Sequence record: PQ850598.1
Source: Escherichia phage ClaudiaMuster_Bas77
Strand: one strand, 5' to 3'
DNA length: 46,037 bases
Under the pieces are notes generated by a model, which saw nothing but the letters and a program-made list of their open reading frames with translations, ran no database searches and was not told the DNA's origin. Shown in pieces: positions 1 to 44,559 of the stretch. The first letter of the stretch is position 1, and every line of letters begins with the position of its first letter. The translations under genes and the position numbers were made by a program.

Positions 1-489
1 ATGTGCAGACGCGAAATGAAAATGCATGGTGCTACACAAAAAATCATACAAATGGTAGATGAAATGAAGCTAACAAAAAAACAACGCGAAGAGCTACGCA
101 TGAAGTTCGGTGGTCGCTGTGCTTATTGTGGGTGTGAGCTACCCGAGAAAGGTTGGCATGCAGACCATGTTGAACCAGTGCTACGTAAATCTGAACAGTG
201 CATGAAGGCAGCGGCGAAAGGGATTTTCAAGCTGAAGGCAACCGGTGAGCTATATCGACCAGAAGCCGAGCGACTGGAAAACCTTTACCCTGCGTGCGCC
301 CCCTGCAATCTGATGAAAACTTCCTATTCCCTGGAAATGTTCAGGAAGCAGGTATCTCTTCAGGTTGCTCGTGGGCGCAAAAGCAGCATGAATTTCCGCA
401 CTGCAGAGCGTTTCGGTCTTATCGCCGTGGTGGAGAAACCAGTTGTTTTCTGGTTTGAGAAATACCAGGAAGAGAACGAAAAAAAATAA
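1..489 (+). CDS. HNH endonuclease (terminase-associated)
   Basis: Track ORF 162 aa; HNH motif elements GGRCAYCGCEL ... WHADHVEP ... ACAPCNLMK (CxxC, H-x-D-H, CxxCN); lies immediately upstream of terminase genes. True start uncertain (window edge; internal ATGs at 16 and 51). Confidence 0.7.
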   Translation: MCRREMKMHGATQKIIQMVDEMKLTKKQREELRMKFGGRCAYCGCELPEKGWHADHVEPVLRKSEQCMKAAAKGIFKLKATGELYRPEAERLENLYPACAPCNLMKTSYSLEMFRKQVSLQVARGRKSSMNFRTAERFGLIAVVEKPVVFWFEKYQEENEKK

Positions 490-2961: not shown

Positions 2962-3167
2962 TTATGAGGGGTTTTGTAAGAGATTTCCTGTTTATTGGCA
3001 TTAAGTACACCATTGCACTGGTGATTGCTGTTCCGCTTATCTGGTTGATTAGATGGGAGGAGCCAAGTATTGATGACATTATAAACTGGCAGGTTTTCAG
3101 ACTTGTTATCGGCTTGTGGATTATTTCAGCTATTGCCGCATGGTGGATTAATCATGTTCAGAAATAA
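2958..3167 (+). CDS. small membrane protein (2 predicted TM helices)
   Basis: 69-aa ORF, hydrophobic stretches FLFIGIKYTIALVIAVPLIWLI and LVIGLWIISAIAAWWI; start overlaps upstream stop (ATGA). Confidence 0.5.
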   Translation: MIMRGFVRDFLFIGIKYTIALVIAVPLIWLIRWEEPSIDDIINWQVFRLVIGLWIISAIAAWWINHVQK

Positions 3168-3561
3168 ATTAAAGAAAATAATCCGCGATGCTGCGGATAA
3201 GAAGTACACCAAAAAGATTGACATATCATTTATCGACTGCACTGGACTGTACAATCACGCATGCCACCTGAATGCAGTGAACCGTGCACGGGATGGTAGT
3301 TCGTGCGCAGTGGTTGAGGTGGTTATGATTAATGATGATGGCGCAACAGCGCATTACATCAATATGCAGTCAGACGGCGCATACATCGACTACACGCTTG
3401 GATGGCACTGGTCTGGTGCTGATTACCGGTTTGTGCGGTTTGTTCCGTTTACTGAGTGGCCCGATATCACAGGATCGTTAAGCAAACTGAAAGCTGAACT
3501 GTGTAAGCCAGTGGCTAAATGGCAGAGGTTATTGATGGTAACTGATGGTGAACTTTGTTGA
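3154..3561 (+). CDS. hypothetical protein (135 aa)
   Basis: Track ORF 3103..3561; ATG at 3154 (MFRNKLKK) chosen. Confidence 0.5.
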   Translation: MFRNKLKKIIRDAADKKYTKKIDISFIDCTGLYNHACHLNAVNRARDGSSCAVVEVVMINDDGATAHYINMQSDGAYIDYTLGWHWSGADYRFVRFVPFTEWPDITGSLSKLKAELCKPVAKWQRLLMVTDGELC

Positions 3562-3569
3562 GGTGAGTG

Positions 3570-3743
3570 ATGAAAATCGAAGGTGATTACGGGCAGCATA
3601 TTATGGTTGATAAGGATTTCAAGTATGGTAACGACCTATTAGTAGTTAGGCAAACTGGTGATGTAATCGTCGTTGCAATTGAGCAAGCAGAGCAGCTTAT
3701 CGAAGTCCTGCAACGCTGGGTTAATGGTGAGGAGATTGAGTGA
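3570..3743 (+). CDS. hypothetical protein (57 aa)
   Basis: Hand-translated ORF below track cutoff: MKIEGDYGQHIMVDKDFKYGNDLLVVRQTGDVIVVAIEQAEQLIEVLQRWVNGEEIE; GGTGAG upstream; stop overlaps next start. Confidence 0.4.
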   Translation: MKIEGDYGQHIMVDKDFKYGNDLLVVRQTGDVIVVAIEQAEQLIEVLQRWVNGEEIE

Positions 3744-8112: not shown

Positions 8113-8126
8113 CGTTTGATGTAGAT

Positions 8127-8173
8127 ACTATGCACCACCACTCAATCTACGTCAATAGCCATTGTGATAGAAT
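8127..8173. promoter_or_regulatory. divergent promoter region with TCTAC-core motifs
   Basis: Minus strand: TTGACG (rc of 8150-8155), 17-nt spacer, CATAGT (rc of 8127-8132). Plus strand: extended -10 TGaTAGAAT at 8165-8173, ahead of the lysis cassette. Confidence 0.5.
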
Positions 8174-10954: not shown

Positions 10955-11020
10955 ATCTTGACGTTTCTACATCACTTAGTCAATACTTATTGACGTAGAT
11001 TGTACCACAACGGAAAAGGT
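10955..11020. promoter_or_regulatory. divergent regulatory region with GTTTCTACATCA and TTGACGTAGATTG motif copies
   Basis: Lies between divergently oriented gene starts (10930 minus, 11029 plus); contains two TTGACG hexamers and both motif variants; exact -10 elements ambiguous. Confidence 0.4.
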
Positions 11021-11287: not shown

Positions 11288-11482
11288 ATGGCGCATGACG
11301 AACTGTACGAAGAATCGTTAATCCAGCGACTGAATGAAGTTGAGCGCACACGCGAATGGCTGGAGTGCGAATTGCGAGAGGTGCGCAATCGACTGCAACG
11401 CAAACGCAGTCAACAGAAAGATGTTATCGACTGGTCTGGCAATGCACCTAAATTTAACAACATTGGAGAATGGTTGAAATGA
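11288..11482 (+). CDS. hypothetical protein (64 aa), coiled-coil
   Basis: Track ORF; GGGAG RBS. Confidence 0.5.
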   Translation: MAHDELYEESLIQRLNEVERTREWLECELREVRNRLQRKRSQQKDVIDWSGNAPKFNNIGEWLK

Positions 11483-11700
11483 GAAAGTTCAGTACGTTAG
11501 TTGATTTAATTTTTGCTGACATAAGTGAGGATAACGCCAGAAGCGAGAAGTCAAAAAATCAGCGTCAGGATATTACGTTTCGCACACTGCTTAAGCAATC
11601 AATGCGCAATAAGAAGGAGTGGAGATACAGGCGCGACAGAGTTCTGATAAGACTGTGCAAATTGAATATGAATAAGATACTTAAGGATATGACCAAATGA
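11470..11700 (+). CDS. hypothetical basic protein
   Basis: Track ORF; alternative ATG at 11479 has better RBS spacing. Confidence 0.45.
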   Translation: MVEMRKFSTLVDLIFADISEDNARSEKSKNQRQDITFRTLLKQSMRNKKEWRYRRDRVLIRLCKLNMNKILKDMTK

Positions 11701-11945
11701 CAGCACCACATATGCCAATGATGAATGATAGCGGGTTGCTGTGCTGCCCATTCTGTGGCGGGAATGAAGTTTACTTGAATATTGATTTAGTGCTTGTATC
11801 TGTCGAATGCGGAGATTGCTGTGCAAGTTCAGGTGAATGGGGTTCACCGGAAACCGCTGTCAGGCACTGGAACACCCGCAACGGACACCTATACACCGCA
11901 GACGACTTCAATCAGGCAGCAGAGGAGCGTGATTATGGACTATAA
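11697..11945 (+). CDS. Lar-like restriction alleviation zinc-ribbon protein
   Basis: 82 aa; CCPFCGG ... VECGDCC ... AVRHWNTRN matches the Lar family pattern (CPFCG ... C..C ... WN.R) as recalled. Confidence 0.55.
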   Translation: MTAPHMPMMNDSGLLCCPFCGGNEVYLNIDLVLVSVECGDCCASSGEWGSPETAVRHWNTRNGHLYTADDFNQAAEERDYGL

Positions 11946-12423
11946 ATCACAAATCATGCGCGTGATTATGAATCACCCCGGTTCAACGCGCGCATATATT
12001 GAGAAGCATTGCGGAGGAAAGCATTCAAGCACCACAACGCATCGTTTGCATGAGATGCTTGCGCTTGGATTCATTCGCCGTGAGAAGTCCGTGATTCGCG
12101 GTGGGAAGTGGCAGTATAAATATTTCATCTCTGATGATGCAGCTGGTATTGATGATGCTATTAAGTGCCATTTGCTTGATAACGCTGGCGCAGAGGTGAA
12201 AGAAATCAGCGTAGCCACTGGCATTGATTACCGAATCGTGAAAAGCCGCATCCGCATTATGTTTCATAACGGTGATGTAACGCGAAGATATGACCACCAC
12301 AAGAAGCTGTGGCGTTATTCTTGGCATGAGAAGGAAGTTAACGTCAGCAACCTGTTTAATTCACTTCTTCGCAATGTAAGAGGTCGTCATGGGGAAAGCC
12401 AAACGCAAGAAGCAAGAGTATGA
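11935..12423 (+). CDS. hypothetical protein, possible winged-helix DNA-binding protein
   Basis: Track ORF 11794..12423; ATG at 11935 (MDYKSQIMRVIMNHPGSTRAYIEK); helix-turn-helix-like segments; weak call. Confidence 0.4.
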   Translation: MDYKSQIMRVIMNHPGSTRAYIEKHCGGKHSSTTTHRLHEMLALGFIRREKSVIRGGKWQYKYFISDDAAGIDDAIKCHLLDNAGAEVKEISVATGIDYRIVKSRIRIMFHNGDVTRRYDHHKKLWRYSWHEKEVNVSNLFNSLLRNVRGRHGESQTQEARV

Positions 12424-12565
12424 GCCATTACCGCCATGCGAAATGTCAGGAATGCCGCAGCAGGAGGATGTGATTCTCACCGAGGCTGAGTGGCGCAAGG
12501 TGGCAAGAGTGCAAATCATGTTCCGCAAACTTGCTGAGGACGTACTAAATGAGATGGGCTATTAA
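12389..12565 (+). CDS. hypothetical protein (58 aa)
   Basis: Hand-translated: MGKAKRKKQEYEPLPPCEMSGMPQQEDVILTEAEWRKVARVQIMFRKLAEDVLNEMGY. Confidence 0.35.
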   Translation: MGKAKRKKQEYEPLPPCEMSGMPQQEDVILTEAEWRKVARVQIMFRKLAEDVLNEMGY

Positions 12566-12896
12566 GCATAAATCTGGCAGAACTCTGTTTATTACATCGG
12601 ATGAGTTTATTGCCAATAACCGTAGAAAGATGGGCTGGATAGTGGAGGAAGTGAAGATGACGAGTAGAGAGCAGTTTGAGGAGTGGGCCAAGGAGAACGG
12701 AATGAGTCTTGTTTATGGTGACTGTGATTATGTGTATTCGCCAACCGTATGGGCGTGGAAAGCATGGCGAGCATCGCGCTCAGCAATTGAGATTGAATTG
12801 CCAGCGGTAGAGATTGGTTATGAAATGATGGAATACTACGAGCCTCAACAGGTTATTGAGGCAATCAAACAAGCAGGCTTAAAGGTGAAAAAATGA
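12549..12896 (+). CDS. hypothetical protein (115 aa)
   Basis: Track ORF. Confidence 0.5.
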   Translation: MRWAIKHKSGRTLFITSDEFIANNRRKMGWIVEEVKMTSREQFEEWAKENGMSLVYGDCDYVYSPTVWAWKAWRASRSAIEIELPAVEIGYEMMEYYEPQQVIEAIKQAGLKVKK

Positions 12897-19738: not shown

Positions 19739-19778
19739 TTCATCACCTCTAACATTTATTGTTGTTTCTACGTCACTA

Positions 19779-19830
19779 ACTATAAACGCACCATCAATCT
19801 ACGTCAACAGGAATATGCTAAAATCATGCT
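19779..19830. promoter_or_regulatory. divergent promoter region (minus: TTGACG-17-TATAGT) with motif copies
   Basis: On the minus strand, TTGACG (rc of 19802-19807), 17-nt spacer, TATAGT (rc of 19779-19784). GTTTCTACGTCA and CAATCTACGTCAA motif copies present; plus-strand TAAAAT near 19819 precedes the 19855 gene. Confidence 0.55.
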
Positions 19831-36455: not shown

Positions 36456-37400
36456 TTATAAATTAAACTGTTTTTTGAACCATTCAGGCGTTTCCATTTC
36501 TATGACAGGATTACCCATTGAATAACCGGGCCACGAATTGGCTTTTTTGCACGCCTTGTAAATTTCCATAGCGCCATGCAACTGAATTCGACCGATGCGT
36601 AATTGCTCTTCAGTCAAGCGAATTAACGCAGGAATAAATGGTGCTTTCTTTTCCTGAACGAGAAGATTAACAGAGCGTGGCGCATGACCATATGCCGCAA
36701 CAAACATGTCGTGCTGCATCGCCATTTTCATAAAGTACCCAAGTCTCGCAGCATGACGGAAAAACTCTTCTGGCTTGGCGCTCACCGCTGTTTTGTAGTC
36801 GATGATGTCGCCACCTTTGGTAAGGCAGTCAAAGCGAACTTTTGCCTTCTCTCCGTTAATTTCACCTAGAATTGACACTTCAGCATAAGCACCAGCGAGA
36901 AGACTGCTGTAATAGCTGTTTGCGTGGATTACAGCACGCATTTGCTGAATAGCGTCATAATCACCACCTTCCAGCATTTGCTTTCCTACAGCAGCTTTTT
37001 CAGCCTCTTCACGGATGACATCGTAAATTTTCACTGGCTCGCCAGTCGCCTGGATGATTTTGATCACCTCAGCTTTCGACTTTCCTGAAAGTCCTTTGAT
37101 GCCTCGTTCTTTTGCCCATGAGTTCATATCACTTACAGTAACAAGCAGGTCATCACCAAAATCTTCTTTGGTTGGCATTCGTGCATATTCAGCATCAAAA
37201 CGCTCTGGTTCAAGCAACGCAGTATGGCTACCTGTACCGAATATAAGAGCTTTTGATTGCTCATCCTCTTCGTCTTTGTATCGCCATGCTGCTGGGCATC
37301 TGTCAAGTATATTCCATAATCCAGAGCCATTAATATGCTCTGTGTCTGCGTGGTAATCTTCATTACTGAGTTCATTATTGAAATAGACTTTCATCATCAC
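36456..37400 (-). CDS. PD-(D/E)XK family exonuclease
   Basis: 314 aa; D ... IIDYK core motif (RFDCLTKGGDIIDYKT); position in the recombination module. Confidence 0.55.
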   Translation of the reverse strand: MMMKVYFNNELSNEDYHADTEHINGSGLWNILDRCPAAWRYKDEEDEQSKALIFGTGSHTALLEPERFDAEYARMPTKEDFGDDLLVTVSDMNSWAKERGIKGLSGKSKAEVIKIIQATGEPVKIYDVIREEAEKAAVGKQMLEGGDYDAIQQMRAVIHANSYYSSLLAGAYAEVSILGEINGEKAKVRFDCLTKGGDIIDYKTAVSAKPEEFFRHAARLGYFMKMAMQHDMFVAAYGHAPRSVNLLVQEKKAPFIPALIRLTEEQLRIGRIQLHGAMEIYKACKKANSWPGYSMGNPVIEMETPEWFKKQFNL

Positions 37401-38023
37401 TCTCCGTGGTTACAGAATTCTTTATGCATCTTTTCTCTGAATTTCATCACAGACAACCTCGCTCTCTCAATATCATTGAATAACCCAAGATGGTATCTTT
37501 TCCCGTTAACATCACAGTAAGCCTGCCACTTTTTAACCTGTTTTTGCCAATACACACCTTTAACTCCTGATGTGTTATTTTTTGGTTTTTTAGCGTTATA
37601 CTGGTTCTGCATATTTGTTGCGATTCTTAAGTTGCAAATCCTGTTATCGTCACGCACGCCGTTAATGTGATCAATTTGACCTTCAGGCCAGAAACCATAA
37701 TAAATCAACCATGCCAAGCGATGCGCGTAGTATCTTTTATTATTTATGCTTATCTCTATGTATCCGTTATGTTTTTTCCTGCCAGCGACACTACCCTTTC
37801 TTATACCTCCACCCGTCTTATTTCTAATGAAAACCCCCGTTTCAGGGTTGTAATTTAAGCTATCCAAAACAACATCACGTGGTATTCTTTTTCTTCCTCC
37901 TATGGTGTTTGACTCTGCACTTCCCTGAGCAAAATCTTGCTTTTGCAGTTCCGATAAACTCATTTCCACAAACCTCGCACTTCTTAACGGTGATAGCCAT
38001 TTCTTATCCTCTATTGTAATCAT
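37397..38023 (-). CDS. HNH homing endonuclease with AP2 DNA-binding domain
   Basis: HNH segment YAHRLAWLIYYGFWPEGQIDHINGVRDDNRICNLRIATNMQN; AP2-like segment SGVKGVYWQKQVKKWQAYCDVNGKRYHLGLFNDIERARLSVMKF. Confidence 0.7.
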   Translation of the reverse strand: MITIEDKKWLSPLRSARFVEMSLSELQKQDFAQGSAESNTIGGRKRIPRDVVLDSLNYNPETGVFIRNKTGGGIRKGSVAGRKKHNGYIEISINNKRYYAHRLAWLIYYGFWPEGQIDHINGVRDDNRICNLRIATNMQNQYNAKKPKNNTSGVKGVYWQKQVKKWQAYCDVNGKRYHLGLFNDIERARLSVMKFREKMHKEFCNHGE

Positions 38024-38054
38024 TTACCGTTACATTGCAAGTAACTTTTATTTG

Positions 38055-38082
38055 TTACTAACGATACATTAATCTACGTCAT
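38055..38082 (-). promoter_or_regulatory. promoter-like element upstream of the HNH-AP2 gene
   Basis: aTGACG-16-TAGTAA on the minus strand, embedded in a TAATCTACGTCA motif copy; overlaps the VRR-NUC stop. Confidence 0.35.
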
Positions 38083-38509
38083 CCAGCAAGCCAAAATAGA
38101 AAAGTGTGGCTTTTTTTAGTTCATCAAGACCGTAAGCGATGGCTGCATAATGACCAAGCCTGCACATCTCTGTTAGAACTGCTGATTGATCCTTGCTCAC
38201 TCTGCTCTTACTTTTGTCACGGCGCTTTGCCTCAATCATTCCGCAGCAGTGGTTCGCACCCGGAGTCATTATTACGTTATCGCCTATTCCAGGCTTAACC
38301 CCCATCTTCTGGCGCTTCAGTACGAACTGGACGCGGCTGGATGTTCCTGTTTCATTCGGGACGTGAAACCATAGCACATCAGGGAAACAGTGTTGCATCC
38401 ATGTACCGTAACCCATCTGGTCAGTCTCCTCTTTTGGGCATTCGCCGCGATAACCGCTATCAAATACCCATATACCGCTATCAAGCTGCTTCACTTTGTT
38501 CTCCTGCAA
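38069..38509 (-). CDS. VRR-NUC domain nuclease
   Basis: 146 aa; PGIGDNVIMTPGANHCCGMIEAKR fits the VRR-NUC catalytic pattern (D ... ExK). Confidence 0.55.
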   Translation of the reverse strand: MQENKVKQLDSGIWVFDSGYRGECPKEETDQMGYGTWMQHCFPDVLWFHVPNETGTSSRVQFVLKRQKMGVKPGIGDNVIMTPGANHCCGMIEAKRRDKSKSRVSKDQSAVLTEMCRLGHYAAIAYGLDELKKATLFYFGLLDDVD

Positions 38510-40418
38510 AATCTTTTCTATGGATTATGTCGCGACCTTTATCATTAATGCGATGAGTGATGCGTTTTGGCGCTTTAATCAATCCAGCATACATCATGAA
38601 CTGCTTAGCATTCTGGCATTTCAGGATTTTCCCCGCCATTGACTTATCATCAAGGTGAGGAAAAATAGCCTTTGCCTTGAACATGTTTTTCATGTGAGTC
38701 GCACCGCCATATGGGTAGAAAACTTCGTTAGCCCAGCCTTCTTTGCCATCACAACGATTAATCCAGTAGCGATACAAAATACCTTCTCCATCCTTTGTTA
38801 GCTGGACTTTGAAATCAATAACATCAGCCCACTCATTATCGGTATACGCACGCTCATTCAGTGCCGCATTCGGGTCGCGCAACACGTGATCGCAATGCCG
38901 GCAATAGCGCGCCGTTGGGTCGTTTTTAGTGCCGCATCCATCATCAAAAATCCGTATTCCGTGCTTATCAAAACCGCAACGAATATAACTGAAAAACTCC
39001 TCGCAGCGACCATCTGGCGACAATGCATCTTTGCCAATGCATCGACGCGCATATGGGCTGTTCATTGTTCCACATGTATGACACGGAACTTGTTCGCCAC
39101 TGCGTTTTGAACGTTGCGCTTCAGCTTCTTCCAGAATTGGGTCTTCATATAGCTGACCAAGCTCAAACATCGTGCCTGAGAAATCAAGAACCAGATGGTT
39201 TTCTTTATGATACCCGGCGTCAATTTGGTCTTTCTTCAGCAGTCGCATTCCGCGACCAAGCAACTGAACAAGAAGGGTGAGCGACATTATTTTTCGCAAT
39301 ATAACGCTTGTATCCCATAGCGGGATGTTTACGCCGGTCGTCAAGCAACCAATTTGGAAAACATATTTAATCTTGCCAGTGTATGCATCCTTTAATGCCT
39401 TGCGTCTGGCTTTCTGTCCCATATCTTCGGTGACGATCGCATAACTTCCTTCAGGTAGGTATTTTGCCGCCTCCTGACAGTGCTTCTTGCCAGCGCATGT
39501 AATCAATACGCCGTTTCTGTTTTTTGTCAGCTCCATAACCTTGAGCATGATTTTCTGCGTGAGTGTTCCTTGCTCAAGGATTTCTTTCTGCATCTGCTTG
39601 AGTTGCTCGGTGGTAAATTCCTGAACTCCATCACTTCCTGACGCCTCAAATGCTGACAGGTCGTAATGCAGATCATCAATATCATGAAGACCAAAAATTG
39701 TAGGGACAAGAAAGCCATTATCAACAAGGTATTTGGTATCAATATTTATTATTTCATGCTTCCAGTAAGAACCCTTAATTGACTCAGTTCCACGAAATGG
39801 GCTGCCAGTGTAGCCAATAACAATGACATCGTGTCCGTATTTAGCTTTGCACCTACGGTTAAATTCGGTCATTATTACGCCGTACTGTGTGTCTGAATCT
39901 TCTCCAACAATATCCTCCCAGTTCACTTGATGGCACTCATCAACCAAAATATATCGTGGGCAAAAGTCTGAAAGTGCACACTTTGAGATAACATTGCCTG
40001 ATTCATCCTTTATGTCGAAAAGTGAGTTTTTTATTGTTCTCTCCGTCCCAGCAATAAGCGGGTATGCCGTTGACTTTCTGCCAAGAGACGCGCTGAAAAG
40101 TGAGTTTTTAACACTCAGATTCCATAGCTCTTCCGCATCCTGCTCAATAATTTCCCCCTGTCTGGCAATAACAAGGCCTTCCCACCCCATATCCTGAAAG
40201 CGTCGCGCAATCATGGCAATCATAATGGTCTTTCCAGCACCTACAGATGCCGTCACAAAACTTGGCTTAGGGTCTTTGCCAAACTTGCGGATAACTTCAG
40301 CCGTCTTTTCATAAACCAGCCACTGATATGGTCGCGGCTCAATCTCACCCGTATGAACAACTGACCGCAATTTGTCTATATCCAATTCAGCAATCATTGC
40401 GTCTATTTTATGCGTCAT
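38481..40418 (-). CDS. SF2 helicase with C-terminal zinc ribbons
   Basis: 645 aa; Walker A SVGAGKT, DEAH-like ILVDECHQ, helicase C-terminal motifs (QLLGRGMR), then Cys clusters (CHTCGT...C, CRHCDH). Confidence 0.8.
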   Translation of the reverse strand: MTHKIDAMIAELDIDKLRSVVHTGEIEPRPYQWLVYEKTAEVIRKFGKDPKPSFVTASVGAGKTIMIAMIARRFQDMGWEGLVIARQGEIIEQDAEELWNLSVKNSLFSASLGRKSTAYPLIAGTERTIKNSLFDIKDESGNVISKCALSDFCPRYILVDECHQVNWEDIVGEDSDTQYGVIMTEFNRRCKAKYGHDVIVIGYTGSPFRGTESIKGSYWKHEIINIDTKYLVDNGFLVPTIFGLHDIDDLHYDLSAFEASGSDGVQEFTTEQLKQMQKEILEQGTLTQKIMLKVMELTKNRNGVLITCAGKKHCQEAAKYLPEGSYAIVTEDMGQKARRKALKDAYTGKIKYVFQIGCLTTGVNIPLWDTSVILRKIMSLTLLVQLLGRGMRLLKKDQIDAGYHKENHLVLDFSGTMFELGQLYEDPILEEAEAQRSKRSGEQVPCHTCGTMNSPYARRCIGKDALSPDGRCEEFFSYIRCGFDKHGIRIFDDGCGTKNDPTARYCRHCDHVLRDPNAALNERAYTDNEWADVIDFKVQLTKDGEGILYRYWINRCDGKEGWANEVFYPYGGATHMKNMFKAKAIFPHLDDKSMAGKILKCQNAKQFMMYAGLIKAPKRITHRINDKGRDIIHRKDFAGEQSEAA

Positions 40419-40433
40419 AGCTACTAACCTTTG

Positions 40434-40483
40434 TTGATGTTTCTACGTCAGTTAGCTTATACTCAATCTACACCAACAATCAA
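40434..40483. promoter_or_regulatory. divergent promoter region between helicase and primase-like genes
   Basis: Plus strand: TTGATG-18-TATACT (40434-40463). Minus strand: TTGATT-16-TATAAG (rc of 40456-40483). GTTTCTACGTCA and CAATCTACACCAA motif copies present. Confidence 0.45.
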
Positions 40484-40493
40484 GGGTCAATTT

Positions 40494-41447
40494 ATGAGAT
40501 ATGACTGGAAGGAAATCGAGCCAAAAATGATCGGCAACTGGCAGGCTGCCATCATGTCTATCGTCAATGTGGATAGCAGAGTTTTCAATGGCAAGCACCA
40601 GCCATGCCCTCATTGCATGGGGGTTGACCGGTTCCGTTGGGATAATCACTTCGAAACAAAAGGCGATGGCGGCGCAATCTGCAATCAGTGCGGTTCCGGC
40701 AGCGGCATGAATTGGCTGATGAAACTCTCCGGAATGAGCTTTCCTGAAGCGCTGGAGGCGCTTGGTGGATTCCTGAACATGCACCCGCGCGAAAAGCTGG
40801 AGGCAATCAGGAAGGAGCTACCGAAGATAAATTATAGCGATGACTTCATCACTGAGCAGGAAGTCGCCGCAATAATGGCTAAAACGACTCGTGTCGCGAT
40901 GAATGAGTGGACTTTGATAAATGGTATTGGTTGCGACGTTAACGTCACCAGAGGCAAATCTGGAGAACTTATTGCGGTTGAGATGATGCGAGCTGACACA
41001 ATGAAACTGTGCAACGTGGCATTCATTGGCATGGATGGTGATTCAATCAGAACGTTTTTCCGCGCAGGATACAACAAGGACTCAGCCATCAACGGCAAAC
41101 TCACGCGCGGCGCGATAAGCCCAATCGGAGAAGACAACGGGAAGTTCATTTACCTGGTATCTGATTATGCCGATGCGTGGAAGTGCCATTACTTCACTGG
41201 CGCGCATGTCTGGTGCTGCTGGTCGCCGGAAAACATGTGGGAAGTGGTGCGCTCTGTTAGCAATGAGATGAAGTCACGGTTACGCTGCATAGTTAATTAT
41301 AAATTTGACGAACTTTGCGCTGCGGAAAACGCAGGGATTCCGGTGATGCTTCCTGATGATGCCGACACTATCAGGATGGCAAAGAGAATCAGGAGAAAGA
41401 TTTATGACGCTGGCGAGTTGATAGAAAAAATGTCAGTCAACAGATAA
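40494..41447 (+). CDS. primase-like protein with N-terminal zinc ribbon
   Basis: Track ORF 40431..41447; ATG at 40494 (MRYDWKEIEPK); CPHC ... CNQCGSGSG zinc-binding motif; divergent from helicase; primase assignment is contextual. Confidence 0.45.
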   Translation: MRYDWKEIEPKMIGNWQAAIMSIVNVDSRVFNGKHQPCPHCMGVDRFRWDNHFETKGDGGAICNQCGSGSGMNWLMKLSGMSFPEALEALGGFLNMHPREKLEAIRKELPKINYSDDFITEQEVAAIMAKTTRVAMNEWTLINGIGCDVNVTRGKSGELIAVEMMRADTMKLCNVAFIGMDGDSIRTFFRAGYNKDSAINGKLTRGAISPIGEDNGKFIYLVSDYADAWKCHYFTGAHVWCCWSPENMWEVVRSVSNEMKSRLRCIVNYKFDELCAAENAGIPVMLPDDADTIRMAKRIRRKIYDAGELIEKMSVNR

Positions 41448-41478: not shown

Positions 41479-41893
41479 ATTTCTTGAACTCTGGTGCTTC
41501 AGTCCAGAAGGCTACATTTCGCAGAGACTTACTCGTGTGATTGCACCAGTATATTCCTGAGTCATCATACTTGGCAGTAACCTTGACGCGATCAGTATCA
41601 ATAATAACAACCTCCTGCCCATCTTTAGGGTCGAAAAGACGCGCATCCTTCCAGTTAGCAATCTCATTAAGGGAAAGAAGAACATAGCCTGGAAGATAAG
41701 CGCCGACATCAGCAATGTGAACTATTGTTCGCTCCGTTCTCTCTCCTGTGTAGTCGCCATTCCACTCATAAAGAATAACCGTGTCTCCAACCTTAAAATC
41801 ACGATCGTTCTTCCTTAGTTCCGCCTTCTTGTGTCCGGTAACAACAGGCCAGAAGTGCTCAGGTAAGATTTTTAGTTCGTGTGTTTTGCTCAT
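41477..41893 (-). CDS. DUF3850 / ASCH-like domain protein
   Basis: 138 aa; N-terminal HELKILPEHFWPVVTGHKKAELRKNDRDFKVGDTVILYEW fits the DUF3850 (ASCH-fold) signature as recalled. Confidence 0.5.
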   Translation of the reverse strand: MSKTHELKILPEHFWPVVTGHKKAELRKNDRDFKVGDTVILYEWNGDYTGERTERTIVHIADVGAYLPGYVLLSLNEIANWKDARLFDPKDGQEVVIIDTDRVKVTAKYDDSGIYWCNHTSKSLRNVAFWTEAPEFKK

Positions 41894-43470
41894 TTCAACC
41901 CCCTCATAAATCTCATGCGCTTAACAGCAGCAGAAAGATAATTTCTAACCGTTGAGTTCATTCGCAGTCCATCCCATGAACCATCGCTGCACATCTTAAT
42001 CGCTCTTGGGTTATCTCTGTCCAGCATTAGTGGTGAATGCTTATTCTCCTCAATCGCAAGAAGAACCTCATAAACAAATTTATCAGGTGTTAGTGTGATG
42101 TTATTAGAGTCAGCAGAATTAATTATCTTTTTAATTCTATCACGACACAGCTTGTTCTTTATAACAGACAAGTAAGGCGTTTTAATGAATGCCTGTGACT
42201 CACAAATTCGCTTAATTTTTTCTACAATGTTCTCCCATTCAGTATTTTCAAGTCCATCAAACTCCTGTTCGCCCTCAAGGAATCTTTGCAGACCAGCGAG
42301 ATGCTCAAGAACCACGATATATCCCCATTCGACATGCTCCATCGTAACTGCTGGCGTCATTCCACGGCGACTTGACAGATCTGCGTAAGCCGCAAGAGTT
42401 GCAAGGTCTACAATCATCAGCCCCATGCGCGGGATAACGTCACCAACAACACCATCGCGATCGCCAAGCTCACTTTCCAGTTTCATAGACAGAGATCTGT
42501 GCAGCTTTTTCACTTCATCATCAGCCCATACAGCGTTAGTTTTCGCGGTAAGAATCCTACCTTTCCACTCATTGATTATTTTTCTTGAAATTGTGCCGCT
42601 AACTTCCACATCCTTCATCGCTGGCATTTCCTCACCAGCAAGATGTCCAAGCTGGAACAGCACTCGCCCCATACCGCCATCTTTCTGCCATGAACGCGCA
42701 GCATCTATTCCCTGCTCTGGAGTGACAGTAATCAGCGGAACAAATTTTGCGTTTTCAATTCCACCGTCTTTTGTTGCAATTTCGTATTCATTCATTGCCG
42801 ACTTGAGCGCGCGACCAACGCTGTGGTCCATCATCGCAAGGCGCTTATAATCTATGACGCCTTTACCATCATCACCACCAGTGAGTGGAACTATCCATCC
42901 CTCAGCGCTTGCTGCCGCCATAATGCGTTTTGGGTTTTGTTCCCAAGTAAGGTTTTCAAGCAACTCCTTTATTATTGGCCTGTTAGGAACCCACACTCCG
43001 CCGTCAGTAAGACCTCTATACCACGCCATAGTGCCGCCAAGATATGCATTACGCGGGTTGTTCCAGTCTTCAAGATGTTGCTTATCATCGTTCACAACGT
43101 AGAGCAAAGACCCACCTCCAGCAATAAGGTCTAACTGCATCTGTTTTGTCGAGGTTGATTTAGATGCGCAAACTCTGGACCCTATTCCCAGCGCGTTGGC
43201 ATATGCCCTGACGAAACTCACCGGCGCACCCTTACCTGCACCAGAGCGAGCTACCAGAAATATGCCGGTATTGCAGATACTACCTGTTGGACCAATCAAA
43301 TATCGGCCAGCCATCGCCTGAGTAAGGCCCAATGCACCAGTTAAACGATACCTCTCACCATCATTACGGCGCTCAAAGTTTTTCGCAATCTCATCCATAA
43401 ACTCACCAAGTGCACCAGGAGCATCCCTATTCATACCCATAGCCATGGACTCAAAATCAATAGCGCCCAT
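41890..43470 (-). CDS. large hypothetical protein with P-loop-like motif
   Basis: Track ORF 41890..43485; ATG at 43470 overlaps upstream stop; ARSGAGKGA glycine-rich loop; no confident family. Confidence 0.45.
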   Translation of the reverse strand: MGAIDFESMAMGMNRDAPGALGEFMDEIAKNFERRNDGERYRLTGALGLTQAMAGRYLIGPTGSICNTGIFLVARSGAGKGAPVSFVRAYANALGIGSRVCASKSTSTKQMQLDLIAGGGSLLYVVNDDKQHLEDWNNPRNAYLGGTMAWYRGLTDGGVWVPNRPIIKELLENLTWEQNPKRIMAAASAEGWIVPLTGGDDGKGVIDYKRLAMMDHSVGRALKSAMNEYEIATKDGGIENAKFVPLITVTPEQGIDAARSWQKDGGMGRVLFQLGHLAGEEMPAMKDVEVSGTISRKIINEWKGRILTAKTNAVWADDEVKKLHRSLSMKLESELGDRDGVVGDVIPRMGLMIVDLATLAAYADLSSRRGMTPAVTMEHVEWGYIVVLEHLAGLQRFLEGEQEFDGLENTEWENIVEKIKRICESQAFIKTPYLSVIKNKLCRDRIKKIINSADSNNITLTPDKFVYEVLLAIEENKHSPLMLDRDNPRAIKMCSDGSWDGLRMNSTVRNYLSAAVKRMRFMRGLK

Positions 43471-43760
43471 CAATATACCCTCCATACTCGCAAGAATTTG
43501 CCAGGGATAATACCTTGTTTCACAGTTACCACCGCACCAGCCCTGTCAGCCTCAATTTTTATCGCCTTCTGAAGTGACGTCATTGTCATCTGAAAACCTC
43601 GCTCTATATCGTATGCGTAGCACCCATCTCTTCCACCAATCAAAATTGAAGTTGAATACCCGTTCTCAAAGTAAAACTGACACCCATCAGGAGCTGTAAG
43701 ATTATTTATCACGTCGTGAGCAAGAGATGTCGTGACAGGGAATATCTGAGCGCAACTCAT
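43470..43760 (-). CDS. hypothetical protein (96 aa)
   Basis: Track ORF 43470..43772; ATG at 43760 with GGAGGTAGGT RBS. Confidence 0.45.
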   Translation of the reverse strand: MSCAQIFPVTTSLAHDVINNLTAPDGCQFYFENGYSTSILIGGRDGCYAYDIERGFQMTMTSLQKAIKIEADRAGAVVTVKQGIIPGKFLRVWRVY

Positions 43761-43762
43761 AC

Positions 43763-44002
43763 CTACCTCCACCCCATGTGTAACAATAAAATTTCGTCTT
43801 TATCAACATTCACCAACACCTTGATACCCATATCCATTGAAACAATACTGACATTTGTTCGAAAACTCGGTAACCCCATCGCGCGCGCACGTTCCCAATC
43901 TTCACCACAAACAAACCACCCATCATGCGTTCTCCTCAGGCGCTTAAGTAACCCGTACACCCACTCAAGATTTGACCCTTTACGGTAATTTAGTTCTTTC
44001 AT
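43763..44002 (-). CDS. hypothetical protein (79 aa)
   Basis: Track ORF 43763..44056; ATG at 44002 with GGAGATGGAGG RBS (MKELNYRKGSNLEW...). Confidence 0.45.
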   Translation of the reverse strand: MKELNYRKGSNLEWVYGLLKRLRRTHDGWFVCGEDWERARAMGLPSFRTNVSIVSMDMGIKVLVNVDKDEILLLHMGWR

Positions 44003-44099
44003 ACTTACCTCCATCTCCAGTGACTCTAATTTTATATAAATAAAAAAGATATGCAATTCTAATATGTGCTGGCTGTACAGTTTGGCTAATTTTTGCTCG

Positions 44100-44510
44100 A
44101 TTTATACCGTCTTTACCTGGTTTTTACCGTGCTATTTTTGATGCAACTAATTGATTAATAAGATTTTACCGGTTTTACCGGATTTCTTAAGTGGTATTTT
44201 AATTATTAAGATTGGCAGTGTATTAATTTGATCTAATTTTAATAAACTTAAATAAAATCAATATATTAATATGAATGAATAACTTACTTACCTCTATAGA
44301 ATTTACCGGGTAAAACCGGTAACTCCTCCGCAAGCCGCGCCATTGCTGGCTTCATTTTTACCACCTGTAGGTAAATACAGTAGTTTTTAAGTGATAATTG
44401 TTTTGGTAAGCTGTTGATTACCGGTGCTTTATTTAAAAAACCGGCATTTACCGGTATTTTGTGGAGTGATTAATAAGTGCGCAATTAGTCCTTGTTTACC
44501 AGAATCAACA
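44100..44510. repeat. iteron array (TTTACCGG core, at least 9 copies) flanking an AT-rich core
   Basis: Copies near 44112, 44122, 44163-44186 (tandem pair), 44301-44328 (palindromic pair), 44354, 44416, 44436-44459 (pair) and 44493; AT-rich stretch 44200-44290; no ORF. Confidence 0.6.
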
Positions 44511-44530
44511 AGTGCGAAACCTAAATAATG

Positions 44531-44559
44531 TTGACGTAGAAACATCATTGATGTAGATT
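44531..44559 (+). promoter_or_regulatory. sigma70-like promoter (TTGACG-17-TAGATT)
   Basis: TTGACG, 17-nt spacer, TAGATT about 30 nt upstream of the 44590 ATG; contains GACGTAGAAAC and GATGTAGATTG motif copies. Confidence 0.55.

Follow-up and report, generated by a model that had tools for sequence, protein, structure and literature searches.

Escherichia phage ClaudiaMuster_Bas77 (sequence record PQ850598.1) carries an HNH-AP2 nuclease gene whose 5' part overlaps, in another reading frame, a short open reading frame (ORF) for a zinc-ribbon peptide, termed the leader here. The whole stretch analysed, referred to as the window, comprises 46,037 nucleotides. It represents a siphophage genome of ~46 kb, with mosaic blocks that are 96-99% identical to Escherichia phage SandraMuster_Bas78 (Bas78), a member of the Skatevirus cluster of O16-dependent small siphoviruses (PMC11990801). 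The nuclease gene lies within a replication and recombination block in which all genes, from SSB (34713) to the helicase (40418), are on the minus strand. An HNH and AP2 endonuclease gene had been proposed at this locus from the sequence (the original prediction), and Pfam, PHROG and a family profile all bear this out.

The ORF at 37397..38023 (minus strand), of at most 208 amino acids (aa), matches Pfam HNH_3 (E 1.3e-16) and PHROG 99, 'HNH endonuclease' (3e-73). It also matches Pfam AP2 (E 9.5e-6), under the gathering score (26.3 vs 33.3 bits). The HNH_3 catalytic domain (PF13392; 37601..37732, minus strand; residues 98-141 of the 208-aa ORF) contains the motif DHINGVRDDNRICNLR, and the AP2-type DNA-binding domain (PF00847; 37421..37570, minus strand; residues 152-201) is located C-terminal to it. 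The HNH and AP2 assignments are sound, since a family profile built from 36 homologues recovers both plant AP2 domains (7WQ5, WRI1, 2.7e-6; 7ET4, 5.5e-4) and the HNH homing endonuclease I-HmuI (1U3E, 1.4e-4). Residues H99, N101, N107, N111, N120 and N123 (188-aa numbering) are invariant across the alignment of these homologues. In Bas78 (L001), the DHINGV motif has Cys for Gly (DHINCV), the sole amino-acid difference from the window within the motif. The nuclease itself is ordinary, belonging to a known family and being annotated as an HNH endonuclease in GenBank relatives.

The zinc-ribbon leader and its promoter

The leader ORF (37875..38000, minus strand) consists of 41 codons for the peptide MAITVKKCEVCGNEFIGTAKARFCSGKCRVKHHRRKKKNTT, followed by a stop; relative to this ORF, the nuclease is read in +1. 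With its Cys4 zinc-ribbon pattern and basic tail, the peptide matches DUF2116 'treble clef' weakly and gives PHROG matches to HNH-associated zinc fingers. A Shine-Dalgarno sequence read from the letters, AGAGGA (38007..38012, minus strand), stands 6 nt before the leader ATG, directly after a TACAAT hexamer; AGAGG is kept in enterobacterial and Vibrio leaders. In every relative that carries the nuclease gene, the leader peptide is identical or near-identical. The 19 unique nucleotide changes found in the leader among these carriers divide into 11 synonymous and 8 non-synonymous when read in the zinc-ribbon frame, and into 2 and 17 when read in the nuclease frame. The relation is reversed in the nuclease body, where 133 synonymous and 195 non-synonymous changes in the nuclease frame compare with 62 and 266 in the other frame. 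Because of this synonymous excess and its reversal in the body, the zinc-ribbon frame is the selected frame in the leader. Variable sites among carriers amount to 16% in the leader vs 54% in the nuclease body. A terminator-like hairpin (37847..37835, minus strand; CCCTGAAACGGGG plus a T-run), situated 30 nt past the leader stop within the NPETGVF codons, was considered and set aside; it is not kept in Bas79, CHRF_10034 or HC6 and is probably due to chance.

Immediately upstream of the leader lies a sigma-70-like promoter (38013..38040, minus strand), composed of a -35 element TTGCAA (38040..38035), a 16-nt spacer and a -10 element TACAAT (38018..38013). It was identified by a promoter scan that returned 8 sites vs 11.8 expected over a 7-kb region, so that such matches are not in themselves above chance. 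In distant leader lineages, TTGAC(T/A)-16/17-TACAAT is present at the equivalent position, and the nuclease gene very probably has a promoter of its own. The original prediction had likewise assigned the gene its own promoter, although in the form of a different element, TGACG-16-TAGTAA, which does not hold up. Its strings TGACGT (38081..38076) and TAGTAA (38060..38055) exist on the minus strand, but as a promoter (38081..38055) they match sigma-70 poorly, at ~4/6 and 3/6 positions with no T at position 6. The scan did not report them, and the candidate was rejected.

Two palindromes accompany the promoter. The first, AGTAAC-AAATAAAA-GTTACT (38040..38059, minus strand), is a perfect GTAAC-N8-GTTAC site that abuts the -35 element, while the second, GTAAC-GGTAAATG-ATTAC (38016..38033, minus strand), occupies the spacer of the promoter and runs into the -10 element with its 3' arm. 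These are the only GTAAC-N8-GTTAC sites in the window, and both belong to the cassette formed by the leader, the nuclease gene and their upstream signals. Within the 75-nt regions ahead of 19 leader ATGs, the corresponding class of 18-mer palindromes has 16 matches, compared with 6 over ~112 kb elsewhere in the same loci. The common layout across leaders is a TTGAC(n) -35 element followed by GTAAC-N8-GTTAC, the 3' arm of which overlaps a TACAAT -10 element. A second copy abutting the -35 element is found in enterobacterial lineages. Leader, promoter and palindrome are conserved across many nuclease genes.

Related leaders and the start of nuclease translation

The leader peptide is found in 75-125 phage records (tblastn). 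The ORFs behind it are of at least 10 different kinds and come from Skate-like, Klebsiella, Vibrio, Listonella and metagenomic phages. Amino-acid identity of 50-70% extends into Vibrio and metagenomic phages, with all four Cys residues kept. In Skate and ~45 related phages, for example, the gene behind the leader is another HNH gene, of 334 aa, in the primase/helicase interval, whereas the bodies in Vibrio, Listonella, Klebsiella and metagenomic phages mostly contain HNH_3 'YNPETG' or Cys-rich motifs (annotated as endonuclease VII or HNH). Bas78 (L043) has a second leader-headed gene, Bas78_0076 (257 aa; 40224-40997), in its helicase/primase interval. The 142 bp of this second leader are 89% identical to window 37915-38056, and the gene is absent at window 40418-40497.

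In two lineages (L044 and L052), the leader occurs on its own. In L044 (JGI metagenome contig Ga0233410_10000104, 2930-4350), a stand-alone 44-aa leader with the same promoter and palindrome lies upstream of a TAGT-domain gene, which has its own ribosome-binding site, and of a helicase. Because no nuclease overlaps this leader, the module is not restricted to homing endonucleases. Pseudomonas phage 15b likewise has a stand-alone leader, and its next gene is in the +2 frame with an ATGA overlap. The existence of such leaders indicates that the micro-protein can act as a separate product. Judged by its sequence, the leader is a dual-coding element of ~140 bp that has been missed by almost all annotations. 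Nothing specific was found in the literature on frameshifted, leader-controlled or zinc-ribbon-associated homing endonucleases, and the leader cassette appears undescribed in searchable publications.

The nuclease ORF is open up to ATG 38023. Its most likely coding sequence (CDS) is shorter, with 188 aa plus stop (37397..37963, minus strand), and begins at a nested ATG (37963..37961) inside the leader. The candidate ribosome-binding site for this start, GAGG (37973..37976, minus strand), is placed 9 nt upstream. The 188-aa start is already used by the annotators of HC6, NX263, CHRF_10034 and SCNJ1-C and in database clusters P0001-P0004. Wherever a body overlaps the leader in other lineages, its phase is +1, and the annotated CDS starts are all +1 ATGs inside the zinc-ribbon ORF. 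GGAG or GAGG precedes the +1 ATG by 6-9 nt in most of the lineages in which the nuclease lacks its own start. The +1 starts were evaluated by resampling, in which synonymous leader codons were drawn anew with the peptide kept; the feature scored was a start codon in +1 that leads into a +1 frame open as far as the junction. All 10 of 10 lineages have this arrangement (joint null probability ~0.008), and 8 of the 10 have a +1 ATG, where ~4 would be expected. Two complementary sources supply the ATG, namely Asn-Glu codons and T-ending Tyr/His codons. No +1 ATG is present in L052, L076 and L078, leaders that precede a gene with its own start. With moderate confidence, the nuclease can be read as starting at the nested +1 ATG 37963, and the same confidence extends to the cassette as a whole package.

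Several observations weigh against this reading. Two lineages, L070 and L071, have no +1 ATG and offer GTG or TTG only, and in L016, ATA stands where the nested start would be. The resampling gives modest statistics, obtained from lineages that are not fully independent. Codon composition partly accounts for an open +1 and a closed +2 frame, the Lys/Arg/Glu-rich leader ORF having a +2 frame full of stops and a +1 frame that is not. From the nested ATG to the junction, there is no purifying selection on the +1 frame (2 synonymous vs 13 non-synonymous changes), as expected for non-coding sequence and for a dispensable N-terminal tail alike. In addition, the AlphaFold structure of the leader peptide alone, which contains beta-hairpins, is predicted with low confidence (pLDDT 66).

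The main rival to the nested start is a programmed +1 frameshift, although we consider it unlikely. Translation would begin at the leader ATG (38000) and slip on the Lys run (AAG AAA AAG, AAA_A) to yield a zinc-ribbon-HNH-AP2 fusion of ~200 aa, with the 41-aa peptide as the unshifted majority product. The constant +1 phase of overlapping bodies favours such a mechanism, as does the missing +1 ATG of L070 and L071. The junction coincides with the natural N-terminus of nuclease families, most of which have lost their own start, AAA_A or AAA_G is present at nearly all junctions, and AGGAGG-AAG-AAA in the window mimics prfB spacing. In the phage HNH proteins of loci L039-L041, tandem zinc ribbons of this type precede the HNH domains in the same frame. 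An in-frame version of the leader fusion itself was not found among 5.8 billion proteins searched with a leader profile, which recovered only four clusters of 44-50 aa. The features that would mark a shift site are less consistent. AAA_A/G is followed by ordinary codons rather than by a conserved slow or stop codon in the A site, and the zero-frame stop lies 4-15 codons beyond it. AGGAGG is not kept in HC6, Bas79, CHRF_10034 and other lineages (AGG AAG, AGG TGG and AGG CGG in close relatives), and a basic tail predicts Lys codons regardless. Moreover, the +1 start codon and open +1 frame, which exceed chance, are not needed for frameshifting, the bodies of L035 and L077 have their own ATG, and stand-alone leaders show the peptide to be an independent product. 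The leader mRNA has no significant RNA structure (z -0.57), which might also have hidden a nested start.

Gene callers split or mis-start these leader-headed nucleases, both in L048 (Logan ERR9384552_221, 3001-3610) and in the GenBank records for Skate, Vibrio 1.276.O, pYD38-A/B and others. Their annotated N-termini MSLSELQKQ..., MEQQKQK... and MEQQELSS... are +1 readings of zinc-ribbon codons, which is why unrelated nucleases (e.g., P0025) show a spurious N-terminal similarity.

Distribution, insertion boundaries and alternative gene models

The original prediction took the gene to be mobile, in opposition to a domesticated gene universally present at the locus without insertion boundaries. 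Comparison with relatives clearly gives the sporadic pattern. Only 8 of the 177 related phage records with matching flanks hold this nuclease gene (Bas78, HC6, 6947, HC8A, Bas79, NX263, CHRF_10034 and SCNJ1-C), to which a few IMG/VR and metagenome contigs can be added. About 95% of the relatives lack it and have intact flanking genes. A further figure, 77/186 records, mixes empty sites with small inserts, pieces up to ~640 bp apart being joined.

The downstream flank is an ExoVIII-like PD-(D/E)XK exonuclease gene (36456..37394, minus strand; Pfam DUF3799, PHROG 412, Bas78 annotation), and the upstream flank is a VRR-NUC-like gene (38069..38509, minus strand; PHROG 824). Of the two neighbours named in the original prediction, the exonuclease is well founded, and the VRR-NUC likeness is weak (Pfam VRR_NUC E 0.21, sub-threshold), although some annotators use that name. 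In phages ST46 and Bas81, the slot between these genes is an uninterrupted spacer of 37 bp, that is, an empty site. Alignment with both defines an inserted segment of 670 bp (37395..38064) that replaces 33 bp of the spacer. Homology breaks at the ExoVIII ATG (37394) and is back at 38065, giving clean boundaries at 37394/37395 and 38064/38065; on the upstream side, it restarts at TGTA (38068..38065), the 4 nt just past the stop of the VRR-NUC-like gene. No GTAAC-N8-GTTAC-like site was seen by eye in the empty-site spacers of ST46 and Bas81. The 10-mer GTGATGATGA occurs both at the ExoVIII-proximal end of the insert (37395-37404) and in the ST46 spacer (L002, ~1470-1480), in the latter case 16 nt before a shared ATGAAAGTC. 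It may represent microhomology, an integration remnant or a coincidence.

The slot has other occupants as well. LPSTLL and ST1UNAM hold unrelated ORFs of 58 and 91 aa, respectively. Salmonella phage 64795_sal3 (L004, 1464-2009) has a different HNH-AP2 gene in its ExoVIII/VRR-NUC slot, of 167 aa and 38% identity. This gene has a near-consensus TTGACA-17-TACAAT promoter of its own and no zinc-ribbon leader; it seems to have invaded the spacer independently. In addition, 64795_sal3 has a leader-headed HNH-AP2 gene, located at its primase/helicase slot (L054). The nuclease body has relatives in 1250 phage records, at several other slots; within this phage group, such relatives are also found beside the terminase and between primase and helicase.

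This pattern fits a free-standing homing endonuclease, and on such comparative grounds the nuclease gene is probably mobile. It is highly probable that it represents a sporadically distributed HNH-AP2 homing-endonuclease gene. On the other side of the balance, no target-site or immunity polymorphism was recognised in the flanks among carriers and empty-site relatives; the C-terminal codons of the VRR-NUC-like gene vary, without a consistent relation to the presence of the nuclease gene. A domesticated, non-mobile nuclease serving replication, recombination or anti-competitor functions of the phage is improbable. The gene does sit among recombination genes, its final codons (GGAGAG TGA) provide the ribosome-binding site of ExoVIII, GGAGAG, and co-option of such nuclease genes is possible (PMC10448857). 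Against domestication stand the many relatives that dispense with the gene while keeping its neighbours, the unrelated cargo or other HNH-AP2 gene in the same slot, and the paralogues at other slots of the same phage group.

A gene model of 208 aa read from ATG 38023, with the zinc-ribbon ORF as a chance overlap, is very improbable. This ORF is open from 38023, is called by the BASEL annotators (Bas78 and Bas79) and keeps its ATG in most carriers. Purifying selection, however, acts on the zinc-ribbon frame and not on the nuclease frame in this region, and it is the zinc-ribbon frame that is conserved, with its four Cys residues, into Vibrio and metagenomic phages. A 1-nt deletion in NX263 puts ATG 38023 out of frame. 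The codon itself is located between the conserved -35 and -10 elements, without a recognisable ribosome-binding site, and has no counterpart in the leader at other slots. Of the gene given as 37397-38082 in the original prediction, the nuclease is therefore retained, while the first part of the 208-aa ORF probably does not code for nuclease. A decaying pseudogene, in which an indel broke an ancestral zinc-ribbon-HNH fusion, is equally hard to credit. The two out-of-phase frames would fit such a history, as would the frequent decay of homing endonuclease genes (PMC10448857). However, >10 lineages whose bodies are intact (190-350 codons) keep the same phase relation, the body is more synonymous in its own frame, and no in-frame ancestor was found in any database searched, the fusion being absent from the top 120 body homologues, whose long members are tandem HNH_3 duplications.

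Other features of the locus can be assigned to the resident phage. The start of ExoVIII is most likely ATG 37394 (MKVYF..., following the annotation of relatives) and not the GTG at 37400 of the ORF list; the nuclease stop TGA (37397-37399) is thus 2 nt upstream of the ExoVIII ATG. The motif TAATCTACGTCA, which the original prediction saw overlapping its promoter, is real, and its copy GACGTAGATT (38071..38080, minus strand) is one of 18 in the window. The consensus GRYGTAGAWW would be expected 1.0 times, and none of 100 shuffles reaches 18. The copies are mostly paired and intergenic, within the -35 (TTGACGTAGAAA) and -10 (GATGTAGATT) elements of apparent phage promoters (e.g., 2701-2733, 8118-8153, 10964-11001, 19765-19805, 40440-40474 and 44533-44559). 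Empty-site relatives have a tandem GATGTAGATTGATGTAGATT at the slot. Because the insert begins inside the second copy of this tandem, the motif at the locus belongs to the regulation of the host phage and is not an element of the inserted gene. Genome-wide, GRYGTAGAWW is probably a phage-specific promoter or regulator-binding element.

The genome contains at least two HNH genes, as had been predicted, the second being the HNH protein encoded at 1..489 (Pfam HNH 1.2e-5), which adjoins the terminase and is by itself no evidence for a second homing element. A third HNH gene of Bas78 (11690-12205) is absent from the window, where a Lar-like zinc-finger ORF (11697-11945) and other ORFs are found instead. 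Window positions 11482-12873 and 41480-44529 have little or no similarity to Bas78, and the genome is mosaic around its nuclease genes.

A possible controller for a putative mobile nuclease

By analogy with its family, the nuclease would cut or nick gene-less alleles of co-infecting relatives near the slot, catalysis being predicted for the HNH_3 domain and DNA binding for the AP2 domain. Recombinational repair would then copy the cassette into the cut allele. Expression of the cassette would be driven by the sigma-70-like promoter TTGCAA-16-TACAAT, which is bracketed and penetrated by the two palindromes. The leader would be translated from its strong ribosome-binding site, and the nuclease from the nested ATG 37963 behind GAGG, such that nuclease synthesis would be low and dependent on leader translation. 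The zinc-ribbon micro-protein could bind the palindromes and autoregulate the promoter, in analogy to C proteins or I-TevI. Autoregulation is suggested by the conserved dyad in the core of the micro-protein's own promoter. The stand-alone ORF, the in-frame zinc-ribbon repeats of L039-L041 and the strong nucleotide conservation of the leader also point to this role, and the micro-protein may accordingly resemble a controller-like autoregulator.

The cassette combines features of several known systems. Homing endonucleases of the HNH-AP2 family, which occur in phages, cyanobacteria and protists, share an N-terminal HNH_3 and a C-terminal AP2 domain with the present protein (Magnani et al., 2004, via PMC10448857; ICP1 'IPA-HNH'). 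Like it, they are free-standing, lie beside essential replication or recombination genes and are variably present in close relatives (PMC10448857). The zinc-ribbon ORF in another frame and the promoter with its palindromes set the present cassette apart, these being undescribed for the family in searchable papers. I-HmuI of Bacillus phage SPO1 shares an HNH_3-type core at a distant level of sequence similarity. In contrast to the present gene, I-HmuI is intron-encoded, nicks DNA and has a C-terminal DNA-binding region that is not AP2.

Closer parallels concern regulation. I-TevI and other T4 homing endonucleases have a binding site over their own promoter, as predicted here, and limited nuclease translation; some T4 seg/mob genes overlap an upstream ORF (PMC2988022). 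In T4, the nuclease I-TevI itself is the repressor and its operator is like the homing site, whereas the candidate regulator here is a separate 41-aa zinc ribbon, and the palindrome is unlike the empty site and travels with the cassette. C proteins of restriction-modification systems (PMC3874152) are small regulators whose ORF lies upstream of the nuclease gene, overlaps it and is co-transcribed with it. They use paired palindromic boxes over their own promoter, binding being a prediction in the present case, and share the apparent purpose of delaying or limiting a toxic nuclease that enters a new genome. C proteins are helix-turn-helix dimers, whereas the leader peptide is a Cys4 zinc ribbon with a basic tail and so is not a member of this group. 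At most, the micro-protein may work like a C-protein system, and it belongs to neither the C-protein nor the I-TevI type. Small phages provide examples of nested toxic genes in the +1 frame, such as phiX174 E within D and MS2 L. These have in common with the cassette a harmful protein encoded out of frame in a well-translated ORF, with low, coupled expression. The outer gene of phiX174 or MS2 is a structural or scaffold gene of the phage, whereas both frames here form part of one mobile cassette. The cassette can be regarded as a variation on known regulation of homing endonucleases, and the nuclease is an added member of a known family.

More broadly, the leader might tentatively be viewed as a portable control module. 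Such a module would comprise a paired-palindrome promoter, an autoregulating zinc ribbon of 41-50 aa and an out-of-phase nuclease frame, reached by a nested start or a frameshift fusion. It would be swapped between unrelated bodies and between phages of Enterobacteria and Vibrio, and annotations hardly ever include it. For gene models, the analysis brings a correction, as the N-terminus of the 208-aa ORF and many other annotated N-termini are out-of-frame readings of the zinc ribbon. Should the +1 frameshift prove true, the leader would constitute a new and widespread recoding site. An autoregulatory role of the micro-protein, if true, would mean that free-standing homing endonucleases bring along a controller system comparable to the one in restriction-modification. 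Such a controller would help to account for the tolerance of a toxic mobile nuclease newly arrived in a genome.

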